A DNA stretch of 64,000 bases from an uncultured Alphaproteobacteria bacterium (GTDB taxonomy: Bacteria; Pseudomonadota; Alphaproteobacteria; HIMB59; GCA-002718135): assembly GCA_902614085.1 (NCBI GenBank), contig CACMJS010000003.1, positions 7,928 to 71,927 of the forward strand, written 5' to 3'. The notes beneath the pieces were generated by a model that saw only the letters and a program-made list of their open reading frames with translations, ran no database searches and was not told the origin of the DNA. Shown here in pieces: positions 46,378-49,140 of this stretch (position 1 is its first letter; each line of letters starts with the position of its first letter). The position numbers were made by a program, and so were the translations under genes.

Positions 46378-47166
46378 ATGCATGAATTTCAAAATAAATG
46401 GTTAAATCTTAGAGAAACTGTCGATAGAAATTCAAGAAACATAAGAATACTATATTTAATTAATAAATTTTTTAAAAATAAAAAAAATATTAGAATAATT
46501 GATTTAGGTTCAGGTGCTGGATCTAATTATAGATTTCTTAAGTCGCGATTATTAAATATTCAATATTGGTCTTTTGTAGACATATCACATCAATCAACAA
46601 ATTATTTTAAAAAAAATATAAAATTATCATCTAAAATAAAAAAAACTAATTTTAAAATTGTTGATGTAATTAATAGTCTAGAAAAAATAAATTTTAATGA
46701 TTATGATTTAGTTACTGGATCTGCTTTTTTAGATATTCTTCCAAAAACATGGTTTAAAAATTTTCATAAATTAAATCTTGATACAGAAATTGTCTACTTT
46801 GCATTAAATTATAACGGTAATTTTAAATTTTTTCCAAAACACAAGGATGATAAAAAAATTCTTAATTTTTTTAATAAAGATCAAAAATCTGACAAAGGAG
46901 TAGGGGAAGTGGCCGTTGGACCAGATTGTACTGAATTAATAAATAATGTATTTGAAAGAACCCACAAAACATATGTTTTAGACTCTACATGGAATGTTAG
47001 TAAAAATTATGAATTTCAAATTTATTTCTTAAATTTTTGTAGAGAAATTATTCAAAAAAATAAACTTAACTTAGATGATTGGTTAAAATTTCGTTTAAAA
47101 TGTATTAAAGAAAAAAATTCCAGATTTATTTTAAATAATACAGATTTTTTAGCTATTAAGAAATAA
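46378..47166 (+). CDS. Class I SAM-dependent methyltransferase-like protein
   Basis: WLNLRETVD, motif I IIDLGSGAGSN, WSFVD, VTGSAFLD, ALNYNG. Confidence 0.8.
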   Translation: MHEFQNKWLNLRETVDRNSRNIRILYLINKFFKNKKNIRIIDLGSGAGSNYRFLKSRLLNIQYWSFVDISHQSTNYFKKNIKLSSKIKKTNFKIVDVINSLEKINFNDYDLVTGSAFLDILPKTWFKNFHKLNLDTEIVYFALNYNGNFKFFPKHKDDKKILNFFNKDQKSDKGVGEVAVGPDCTELINNVFERTHKTYVLDSTWNVSKNYEFQIYFLNFCREIIQKNKLNLDDWLKFRLKCIKEKNSRFILNNTDFLAIKK

Positions 47167-47982
47167 ATTAACTATAATTTCATTTTCTAATTCATTAAAA
47201 TTATGTTTCGGTCTCATAGCTTTATTGAGATTTGAGATTTCTTTTAAATTTAATGAATTAATTCCGGAACCTATTAATATTGGTGCAATCATAAATTGAA
47301 GAATATCAATATATTTATTATTTATGAATTCTGAAATAGTTTTTGATCCTCCCTCTACTAAAATATTTTTATAATTAAGTTTTTTTATTTGCGTAATTAA
47401 GTTTTTAGTAAAATTTTTTTCTTTTAATCTTATTATTATGGAATTATTCAATCTAATTTTTTTATTACTTTTTGTAAAAACTATATTTTCATTACCATCA
47501 TTAAATATTTTATATTTATTATTTAACGAAAGACTGCCATCAATAATAATTCTTTTTGGATTTGTGCCCTTTATTTTTCTTGTTGTTAATAGGGGATCGT
47601 CTTTTTTAATAGTATTTGAACCTACAATAATTGCATCACTGATACTTCGTAAACAATGTAGATAAATAATACTCTTGGGATTATTTATGTAATGTGAATT
47701 ACCATTATTTAATGCAATTCTACCATCAATACTTTGTCCTATCTGAGCTATAACTAATTTTTTGTTTTTTCTTAATATCGGCATCAGGATATTTAAGATT
47801 GATTGATAAAATTTACTAATATTAATTTTAGATACCAGATTTTTATTTTTTATGTAAAAGTTACTTTTTGTTTTTGATGTTAAAGAAATACTATTTTTTT
47901 TAACCAATAAATATAAATCATTATTCTTTTTAGAATTTTTTATGAAATCTAATAAAATTCCTATATTTTTTGATGTTATCAT
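47149..47982 (-). CDS. RibD C-terminal reductase-domain protein (no deaminase domain)
   Basis: AQIGQSIDGRIA, HCLRSISDAIIVG, DDPLLT, LVEGG, APILIGSG. Confidence 0.9.
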   Translation of the reverse strand: MITSKNIGILLDFIKNSKKNNDLYLLVKKNSISLTSKTKSNFYIKNKNLVSKINISKFYQSILNILMPILRKNKKLVIAQIGQSIDGRIALNNGNSHYINNPKSIIYLHCLRSISDAIIVGSNTIKKDDPLLTTRKIKGTNPKRIIIDGSLSLNNKYKIFNDGNENIVFTKSNKKIRLNNSIIIRLKEKNFTKNLITQIKKLNYKNILVEGGSKTISEFINNKYIDILQFMIAPILIGSGINSLNLKEISNLNKAMRPKHNFNELENEIIVNLFLNS

Positions 47983-48018
47983 TTGTTTTTATTATTATTA
48001 TATCTATATAAAGTTTTC

Positions 48019-49140
48019 ATGAGTTTCAAATCTAATACAGGAACCATAATAGATAGGGCAATTAACGAACTCAGAACTGGAAGACCCTTAATAATTCAGA
48101 ATAATAAGGAATATTGGATGTTCTTTAATATAGAGCATTCCCAAAGTAAAATTTTTAACCAATTCAATAAGCACCTAATTGATGAAAAATATCTACTTAT
48201 TACTAAACAAAAAGCTCAATCAATTTTTAATAAGAATATTAAAAGTAATGTTTATTTCGAGATAAATCCTAAAACAGATGTAAATCAAATAATAAATTTA
48301 TTTGTCAATCCTCTTAGCAATAATAAAGTAATTAAATTTACCAATATTAAAAAATTCAAAGCTAAAAATTTTCATAATGTTTGTATTGATCTTTCCAAAA
48401 ATGCTAAAATGATACCATCACTAGTTTTTAAAAAAATTAATAAAAAATATTACAAAAATATAAATGAATTTGGATTTAAAAATGGAATTTTAATATTCGA
48501 TTACAAAGATTTATTGAAGCAAAATGAATTAATTTGTGAAAGTATCAAATTAGTTTCTAGCGCAAAAGTTCCACTGCCAAAAAATGAAAATTCTAATTTT
48601 AAAATATTTAAATCATATATTGGATCTGATAAACATGTAGCAATTATTGTTAATCCAAAAAAAATAAATAAAAAATCTGTTAATTTAAGAATACATTCAG
48701 CTTGTTTTACAGGTGATATTTTTCATTCTTTAAAATGTGATTGTGGTGAACAATTAAATCAATCAATTAATTACATGGTTAGAAATAATGGTGGAATTAT
48801 ATTGTATTTAGAACAAGAAGGTAGGGGAATAGGATTAGCTAATAAAATGAGAGCCTATTCTCTTCAAGCAAGGGGTATGGATACAATAGATGCCGATCAT
48901 AATATTGGTTTTTTAGATGATGAAAGAGATTTTAATATTGCAGCTAGAATACTTAAATTATTAAAAATAAATAAAGTTAATCTTATTACAAATAACAAAA
49001 ATAAAATAAATTCTATTAAGAAAGCTGGAATTAAAGTCGAAAATCAAATAAATACAAAGCCAACTTTGAATAAATTTAATAAAAATTATTTTAAAACAAG
49101 AGTTAAAAAAGCCGGGTATGGTCTTAAACTAGTAGTATAA
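48019..49140 (+). CDS. ribA: GTP cyclohydrolase II with degenerate N-terminal RibB-like domain
   Basis: RIHSACFTGDIFHSLKCDCGEQL (3 Zn Cys), QEGRGIGLANKMRAY, DERDF, LITNN. ATG at 48019 (track uses TTG 47983). Confidence 0.9.
   Translation: MSFKSNTGTIIDRAINELRTGRPLIIQNNKEYWMFFNIEHSQSKIFNQFNKHLIDEKYLLITKQKAQSIFNKNIKSNVYFEINPKTDVNQIINLFVNPLSNNKVIKFTNIKKFKAKNFHNVCIDLSKNAKMIPSLVFKKINKKYYKNINEFGFKNGILIFDYKDLLKQNELICESIKLVSSAKVPLPKNENSNFKIFKSYIGSDKHVAIIVNPKKINKKSVNLRIHSACFTGDIFHSLKCDCGEQLNQSINYMVRNNGGIILYLEQEGRGIGLANKMRAYSLQARGMDTIDADHNIGFLDDERDFNIAARILKLLKINKVNLITNNKNKINSIKKAGIKVENQINTKPTLNKFNKNYFKTRVKKAGYGLKLVV

Follow-up and report, generated by a model that had tools for sequence, protein, structure and literature searches.

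The seven-gene block analyzed here lies in a 64,000-nucleotide stretch of DNA (hereafter the window) from an uncultured alphaproteobacterium of a marine lineage, and encodes a creatininase homolog (CRE), a dehydrogenase-like protein (ADH), a T-fold protein (PTPS-IV), a GT4-type glycosyltransferase (GT4), a methyltransferase-like protein (MT), a RibD_C-type reductase (RED), and a GTP cyclohydrolase II-type enzyme (GCH). Judged from its sequence, the block is the proteobacterial form of the orphan PTPS-IV cluster, the type represented by Streptomyces coelicolor SCO6650, because its PTPS-IV matches the structure 3d7j with E=6e-34 and carries the FGPAQ signature, and because the same gene order recurs in 80 loci. 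On balance, we lean toward the reading that RED, GCH, and CRE constitute a variable "feeder" arm beside the core of ADH, PTPS-IV, GT4, and MT, in which GTP would be converted to 2,5-diamino-6-ribosylamino-4(3H)-pyrimidinone 5'-phosphate (DAROPP) and then to a reduced diaminopyrimidine, with CRE acting as an optional amide hydrolase. It is also most likely that the predicted pathway keeps the 2-amino group and that no deaminase is missing from it, given that riboflavin synthesis has a canonical gene set of its own.

The cyclohydrolase and its tyrosine

GCH is a 385-aa open reading frame, the C-terminal 170 residues of which correspond to a GTP cyclohydrolase II (GCH II) domain. PF00925 (GTP_cyclohydro2) spans residues 193-356 with 164.8 bits against a cut-off of 23.3, and the RibA model NF001591 gives 218 bits, which is above its cut-off of 148, whereas the domain model TIGR00505 gives 185, which is below its cut-off of 205.85. 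In the phmmer alignment with Escherichia coli RibA (PDB 2bz0; E=1e-41), Tyr292 is paired with Y105, Arg315 of the DERD motif with R128, and the zinc triad Cys241/252/254 (HSAC...CDC) with Cys54/Cys65/Cys67, the triad being invariant in 50 cluster homologs. The alignment confirmed the statement of an earlier reading of the same DNA (the first-pass annotation) that this GCH II keeps the tyrosine of E. coli RibA Tyr105, the three zinc cysteines, and the arginine of the DER motif. This tyrosine is needed for formate release in E. coli GCH II.

The model of the C-terminal domain superposed on E. coli RibA with a TMt of 0.93 and an rmsd of 1.5-1.8 A. The N-terminal domain had no Pfam match at E<=10, including DHBP synthase (PF00926), and its AF2 model (pLDDT 86) resembled RibB structures (Foldseek E of ~1e-6, TMt of ~0.6, and 12-16% identity); the "DRAINELRTGRP" start is retained, whereas the acidic motif of the RENEGD type is missing. 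GCH is thus predicted to descend from a RibBA, its RibB half being dead and its GCH II half catalytically complete, and it should yield DAROPP because the latter half is complete. As the start of its gene, the ATG at 48019 (MSFKSNTG...), which is kept in the relatives L012 and L019, is more probable than the TTG at 47983. Outside the marine lineage, the closest relative of GCH is an ordinary RibA of 370 aa that stands alone in a Roseovarius genome, and no alignment column was found to distinguish the long GCH II of the clusters from housekeeping long RibA. The GCH II tree, which was meant to decide between one and several recruitments, lacks resolution at its deep nodes.

The clusters were compared in a sample of 80 named loci, found through an alignment of PTPS-IV homologs, and 12 loci from a class-wide survey. 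The residue at the tyrosine site was found to split by phylum. All 41 actinobacterial cluster GCH II enzymes are short and have Met (36) or His (5) at this site, Met being present in all Streptomyces loci examined, whereas all 13 proteobacterial ones are long and have kept Tyr; the three Cys and the Arg are without variation in both phyla. GCH and all 13 proteobacterial cluster enzymes have Tyr and lack the replacement (Met in Streptomyces, His in other actinomycetes) that marks the SCO6655-type formyl-retaining paralogues. SCO6655, with Met in place of Tyr, reportedly yields the formylated product, according to Spoonamore and Bandarian, and one sentence in a review backs this Tyr-to-Met account (PMC13151069). 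Among the papers in the library searched, none links a creatininase with GCH II. The assignment of the Streptomyces creatininase homolog as a deformylase is, to our knowledge, an inference rather than an experimental result.

The reductase

RibD_C spans residues 77-248 of RED with 112 bits. In the Pfam search, RED had no cytidine-deaminase domain, and its residues 1-70 matched no family even at E<=10. The N-terminal extension of ~76 aa is lineage-specific, and it is regarded as coding rather than as the result of a miscalled start because the frame is open and a similar sequence is present in the relative L019, the PTPS-IV of which is 68% identical. The first-pass annotation was therefore correct in describing the neighboring RibD as a reductase domain only. 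RED scored 115.6 with the bifunctional RibD model TIGR00326, which is below the cut-off of 156.35, and 94.5 with the archaeal and fungal DAROPP reductase model TIGR01508, for which the cut-off is 186.45; it is a stand-alone protein with Gln at the specificity site.

In bacterial RibD, a Lys at this site (K152 in EcRibD and K151 in BsRibG) confers a preference for the deaminated substrate, whereas the fungal and archaeal enzymes, which have Thr and Asn, respectively, reduce un-deaminated DAROPP, and the preference of yeast RIB7 is switched by a T35K substitution (PMC3631187). In pairwise alignments, Gln80 of RED falls on the Asn in two archaeal DAROPP reductases (2azn and 6p8c) and on the Lys in three bacterial RibD proteins (2hxv, 9no2, and 7lrh). 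Among 30 cluster reductases, the site is occupied by Gln in 24 and His in 6 and never by Lys, which is the residue in the genome's own RibD, and reduction without prior deamination is therefore expected. Together with the absence of a deaminase domain, the non-Lys site makes RED look built for a substrate that still bears the 2-amino group.

The marker protein and the core

PTPS-IV (44951..45349) reads VFGPAQNMHGATY, in which the FGPAQ signature is present and the CxxxHGH motif is absent. Its Glu119 and T83/E85 motif are nearly invariant among 39 homologs, and in PTPS structures these residues hold a pterin-like ligand by its 2-amino-4-oxo face. PTPS-IV thus appears to expect a 2-amino ligand. 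The FGPAQ signature and a GCH II neighborhood have been ascribed to the PTPS-IV subfamily of COG0720 (PMC5445326), and the protein belongs there in having the signature, in having lost the CxxxHGH catalytic and zinc motif, and in having a GCH II nearby. Some homologs in the public protein library (P0123, P0124, P0144, P0146, P0150, and P0156) are proteins of 373-855 aa with three tandem PTPS-IV domains. A review describes PTPS-IV as "involved in F420 synthesis (unpublished)" (PMC5041015); no claim on an F420 link is made here.

The core in the order ADH-PTPS-IV-GT-MT is nearly constant in Actinomycetota, Pseudomonadota, Bacteroidota, and Gemmatimonadota, with ADH as the neighbor of PTPS-IV in almost every one of the 80 loci, whereas RED, GCH, and CRE are variable add-ons.

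Distribution and relatives of the creatininase homolog

CRE is matched by PF02633 over the full length of the model (1-238/238) with 187.5 bits, and it is the single match to this family in the genome. Its alignment with 3lub and 3a6g shows the metal-binding motifs ExH...D, HGG, and HGGxxET. CRE fell below every NCBIfam equivalog cut-off, scoring 106 against 172 for MftE, 79 against 235 for creatininase, and 31 against 180 for ArfB. With the ArfB model (NF033501), which represents the deformylase of the 5-formylamino pyrimidine (FAPy), the score of CRE is 31.3 bits, and those of the actinobacterial and the other proteobacterial cluster CREs are 37-40 and 19-24, respectively.

In actinomycetes, 40 of the 41 GCH II enzymes without Tyr are accompanied by a CRE in the same locus, which is usually adjacent or overlapping, although the two genes are 3-5 kb apart in three loci of the His type. 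In Proteobacteria, CRE usually abuts RED rather than GCH. Four alphaproteobacterial clusters (L139-L142) have CRE and RED without GCH, three others (L147, L148, and L150) have GCH and RED without CRE, and all three genes occur together in one alphaproteobacterial locus, one gammaproteobacterial locus, and the marine lineage. In the four genomes with CRE and RED, no member of the GCH III family (PF05165) was found, and every intact GCH II has Tyr. The presence of CRE is therefore independent of the status of the tyrosine and is not explained by its loss. This bears on the view in the first-pass annotation that a deformylase looks unnecessary after a Tyr-bearing GCH II, which held up: the proteobacterial CRE occurs with or without a cluster GCH II while the intact GCH II enzymes of those genomes all have Tyr, and the actinobacterial CRE is paired with the Met or His type.

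PTPS-IV was found in 32 of 298 high-quality alphaproteobacterial genomes (~11%). A CRE homolog (E<=1e-20) was present in 21 of the 32 carriers compared with 35 of 269 non-carriers, an association in counts that are not phylogenetically independent; the other 11 carriers have no close homolog, and CRE therefore cannot be an obligatory core step. No non-orthologous replacement hydrolase was found in the flanks of the CRE-less clusters L146-L150, and the contexts of CRE homologs in PTPS-IV-negative genomes were diverse and gave no substrate hint. In the CRE trees, the marine and actinobacterial cluster CREs form separate, long-stemmed, and fully supported clades; the other alphaproteobacterial cluster CREs interleave with those of PTPS-IV-negative genomes, and the backbone lacks resolution. 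A single clade of all cluster CREs was marginally rejected by the AU test (p-AU 0.039).

Flavin and pterin genes elsewhere in the genome

In the genome (1.65 Mb, 11 contigs, 96% complete), the GCH II family is represented by three genes and RibD_C by two. Contig C6 ends with glyA-nrdR and a bifunctional RibD truncated after 188 residues, which scores 178 bits with TIGR00326 (cut-off, 156). The end of contig C11 carries the final 78 residues of a RibD_C, followed by riboflavin synthase (ribE), RibB(A), lumazine synthase (ribH), and nusB. A stand-alone 196-aa RibA on contig C1 passes both RibA models. The canonical riboflavin genes thus score above the NCBIfam cut-offs, the nrdR-ribD and ribE-ribBA-ribH set being split by the contig break. 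A gap in riboflavin synthesis that the cluster might fill was rejected, as ribD, ribE, ribB(A), ribH, and ribA are all present. Because flavin synthesis is fully provided for elsewhere, the cluster genes are regarded as paralogues with another job.

Two of these genes have features of their own. The RibBA of the riboflavin operon (contig C11, L003:635-1738, minus strand) has an intact RibB half (230 bits) and a degenerate GCH II half, in which Phe takes the place of Tyr105 and which sits on a very long branch, and is the mirror image of the cluster GCH, in which the RibB half is dead and the RibA half is intact. At C1, L160:10028-11091, the gene for the stand-alone RibA has a one-base overlap with the stop of a gene for a PR-AMP cyclohydrolase of the HisI type, by which two ring-opening cyclohydrolases of purine-derived substrates are translationally coupled.

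No GTP cyclohydrolase I (FolE or FolE2) was found in the genome, and FolE is absent in 41 of 41 relatives. A folB-folP-pabC-pabA-pabB operon is kept (C1, L160:522-4714), beside which lies a divergent gene with a very weak similarity to TrpF (PRA isomerase), and a FolE-less genome with such a gene resembles the Chlamydia RibA and TrpF bypass of FolE and FolQ (PMC4161248). The cluster was also considered as the source of the folate pterin, which is unlikely: 4 of 11 genomes that are >90% complete lack PTPS-IV as well, and the TrpF-like gene offers an alternative route.

Gene organization in the window

The features of the block and an adjoining phosphatase gene are listed in Table 1. RED and GCH are a divergent pair at one end of the block. 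Their start codons are at most 36 bp apart (window 47982-48019), or 0 if the TTG start is used, and therefore both promoters lie inside the coding sequence of the neighbor, or transcription comes from further away. The histidine phosphatase gene, which is possibly accessory, is syntenic only in the closest relatives (L012-L018) and not in L019-L022 or other taxa. On the other side, the gene for a peroxiredoxin of the Bcp/PrxQ type (window 49143-49586, plus strand) starts 2 bp past the stop of GCH and is syntenic in L012-L015; diaminopyrimidine intermediates are prone to oxidation, and the link to the adjoining peroxiredoxin may be coincidental.

Table 1. Features of the PTPS-IV cluster and its flank, with positions in the window
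Feature	Position	Strand	Basis and remarks
Histidine phosphatase	42621..43184	+	His_Phos_1 80.7 bits; beside the cluster, possibly accessory
CRE, creatininase-fold metal amidohydrolase, 255 aa	43208..43975	-	PF02633 full length
ADH, medium-chain (MDR-type) dehydrogenase-like protein, constant core	43989..44948	+	Weak ADH_zinc_N, Glu_dehyd_C, and BchC matches
PTPS-IV, T-fold protein of the SCO6650 type, cluster marker gene	44951..45349	+	PDB 3d7j E=6e-34
GT4-type glycosyltransferase, core	45312..46376	+	Glycos_transf_1 64.7 bits; syntenic in 80 loci
MT, SAM-methyltransferase-like protein, core	46378..47166	+	Weak Methyltransf_12/31/25 matches; syntenic
RED, deaminase-less RibD_C reductase, 277 aa	47149..47982	-	RibD_C at residues 77-248
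GCH N-terminal domain, degenerate DHBP-synthase (RibB) fold	48019..48560	+	AF2 model and Foldseek
GCH catalytic GCH II domain with Tyr292, Cys241/252/254, and Arg315	48560..49140	+	Profile and alignment to E. coli RibA

Discussion

In the pathway that we favor, GCH would convert GTP to deformylated DAROPP with the release of formate, and RED would reduce DAROPP directly to 2,5-diamino-6-ribitylamino-pyrimidinone phosphate, in the step order of archaea and fungi, after which the core genes may turn the 2-amino pyrimidine into a methylated and glycosylated product of the pyrimidine or pterin type. CRE would be linked to the reductase step as an amide hydrolase that is intact but that not every cluster has. 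We infer, as a best guess, that its substrate may be a diaminopyrimidine intermediate of the RED step or a later one, from which it would remove a small N-acyl or formyl group or in which it would otherwise hydrolyze an amide.

Several points weigh against this pathway. The presence of the tyrosine does not prove full deformylation by GCH. RED falls below both the bacterial and the archaeal reductase equivalog cut-offs, so that its substrate could differ, for example, by being a pterin, and neither Gln nor His is among the experimentally tested specificity residues (Lys, Thr, and Asn). The CRE trees are poorly resolved, and the marine and actinobacterial CREs could share one cluster-linked ancestor. 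The lack of phylogenetic independence also applies to the co-occurrence of CRE and PTPS-IV, as stated above.

The other roles that we considered for CRE are, in descending order, an ArfB-like deformylase, a late de-N-acylase, and a deaminase. As a deformylase, CRE would act on FAPy, as is presumed for its Streptomyces counterpart. It might be retained because GCH, in spite of its Tyr, lets some FAPy escape or has it as the main product, or it might serve as a back-up or in the salvage of FAPy nucleotides that arise by other routes. The trio of GCH, CRE, and RED does mirror ArfA-ArfB-ArfC, with ArfB being in the creatininase family and NF033501 giving a weak match; furthermore, CRE adjoins RED in both phyla, nearly all Tyr-less actinomycete enzymes have a CRE in their locus, usually adjacent, and an optional gene would suit proofreading or salvage. 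However, we consider this role unlikely for the cluster in the window, as all proteobacterial cluster GCH II enzymes have Tyr and no column sets them apart from housekeeping RibA, and as four clusters have CRE without GCH in genomes where the intact GCH II enzymes all have Tyr and GCH III was not found. The scores of all cluster CREs with the ArfB model (19-40 bits against 180) and the separate long-stem clades of the marine and actinobacterial CREs point in the same direction. A late de-N-acylase, which might, for example, take the acetyl group off a GlcNAc-type sugar added by GT4, following the MshA/MshB logic of mycothiol, would fit the glycosyltransferase in the constant core, the several kinds of amide hydrolase that the creatininase family covers, and the variation of a tailoring step among lineages; but CRE adjoins RED or GCH, not the glycosyltransferase, in other lineages, and nothing else points to a late role, which makes it quite improbable.

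The first-pass annotation had suggested that CRE may be the missing pyrimidine deaminase or act on a later intermediate, as a non-orthologous replacement in flavin-type chemistry. With CRE in place of the RibD deaminase domain, the cluster would make a uracil-type (flavin- or lumazine-like) product. The cluster indeed has no deaminase domain, and we know of no enzyme assigned to the deamination step of archaeal riboflavin synthesis, which provides a gap of a similar shape as a precedent for an unusual deaminase. Nevertheless, this product and a deaminase function of CRE are both very unlikely. Because the housekeeping RibD already makes the deaminated and reduced intermediate, a dedicated reductase that lacks the specificity Lys would serve no purpose ahead of a deamination step. 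Moreover, none of the 30 cluster reductases has Lys, PTPS-IV keeps the Glu and Thr-Glu residues that we take to bind the 2-amino-4-oxo face, one third of the carriers (11 of 32) have no CRE, and we know of no creatininase-fold enzyme that deaminates. The replacement in flavin chemistry fails on the canonical RibD, RibE, RibB(A), RibH, and stand-alone RibA elsewhere in the genome. The first-pass annotation had itself held that a full-length ribD elsewhere, together with a CRE inactive on these intermediates, would speak against its proposal, and the former half is what was found, in a bifunctional ribD split over contigs C6 and C11. Its more general suggestion, that the creatininase may do a different step than in Streptomyces, remains reasonable, as a lost Tyr does not explain CRE.

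A bolder extension of the pathway is that the feeder arm and the core together form a route to a glycosylated and methylated pterin that is independent of GTP cyclohydrolase I, in which RED and then ADH would achieve a net Amadori isomerization by reducing C1' and oxidizing C2', PTPS-IV would close the pyrazine ring, and CRE would catalyze a reaction new to its fold on a labile 2,5-diaminopyrimidine. We hold this to be distinctly unlikely. If it were true, such a route would operate in bacteria that rank among the most abundant in the ocean and that have no FolE.

The new observations of this study are the phylum-level split of Tyr and Met or His, the finding that in Proteobacteria CRE occurs independently of the cyclohydrolase, and a reductase signature without Lys. 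They leave the understanding of riboflavin synthesis unchanged. The PTPS-IV cluster is present in four phyla, in ~11% of the sampled high-quality alphaproteobacterial genomes, and in ~70% of the sampled relatives of an abundant marine lineage, and it is still an orphan two decades after the first studies of its Streptomyces members. The split between a Tyr-less GCH II with CRE and a Tyr-bearing one with an optional CRE should sharpen biochemical experiments, with CRE being testable on a short list of substrates.

Relation to known systems

The alphaproteobacterial long RibA of the NF006456/PRK08815 type has the same build as GCH, a degenerate N-terminal domain and an intact GCH II. The score of GCH with this model is 266 bits over model positions 11-366, which is below the equivalog cut-off of 464, and unlike a RibA of this type, GCH sits in a PTPS-IV cluster in a genome with a second, short RibA. 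As for pterins, Chlamydia bypasses GTP cyclohydrolase I by RibA and TrpF, which convert the GCH II product to dihydroneopterin monophosphate through an Amadori-type step (PMC4161248). This is a precedent for a pterin-type product that starts from GCH II, although the PTPS-IV cluster itself is without a TrpF-type isomerase.

The closest comparison is with Streptomyces. The SCO6649-SCO6655 region of S. coelicolor, in which SCO6650 corresponds to 3d7j and SCO6655 is a GCH II paralogue, shares with the marine cluster the core order ADH-PTPS-IV-GT as well as genes of the creatininase and GCH II families. In Streptomyces, however, GCH II is short with Met at the Tyr site and CRE is divergently adjacent, whereas in the marine cluster GCH II is long with Tyr and CRE belongs to a separate clade; most Streptomyces clusters also have no RED within 10 kb. 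In the one Streptomyces cluster that was annotated, that of Streptomyces yokosukanensis, a membrane protein of the LPG_synthase_TM family (L069:12572-13990) lies between the tailoring genes and CRE/GCH. No member of this family was found anywhere in the genome of the window, and the marine version is therefore without this possible link to the envelope.

The archaeal front end of riboflavin and F420 synthesis consists of ArfA (GCH III), ArfB (a creatininase-family deformylase), and ArfC (a DAROPP reductase). Unlike ArfA, GCH is a Tyr-bearing GCH II rather than a GCH III, and PF05165 was not found; CRE and RED fall well short of the equivalog cut-offs for ArfB (31/180) and ArfC (94/186), respectively, and the downstream genes are unrelated to flavin synthesis. 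Nevertheless, the three types of enzyme and their order are the same, the specificity residues, Gln in RED and Asn in archaea, are both amides, and reduction precedes any deamination in the archaeal Arf route, as is proposed here for the PTPS-IV cluster.

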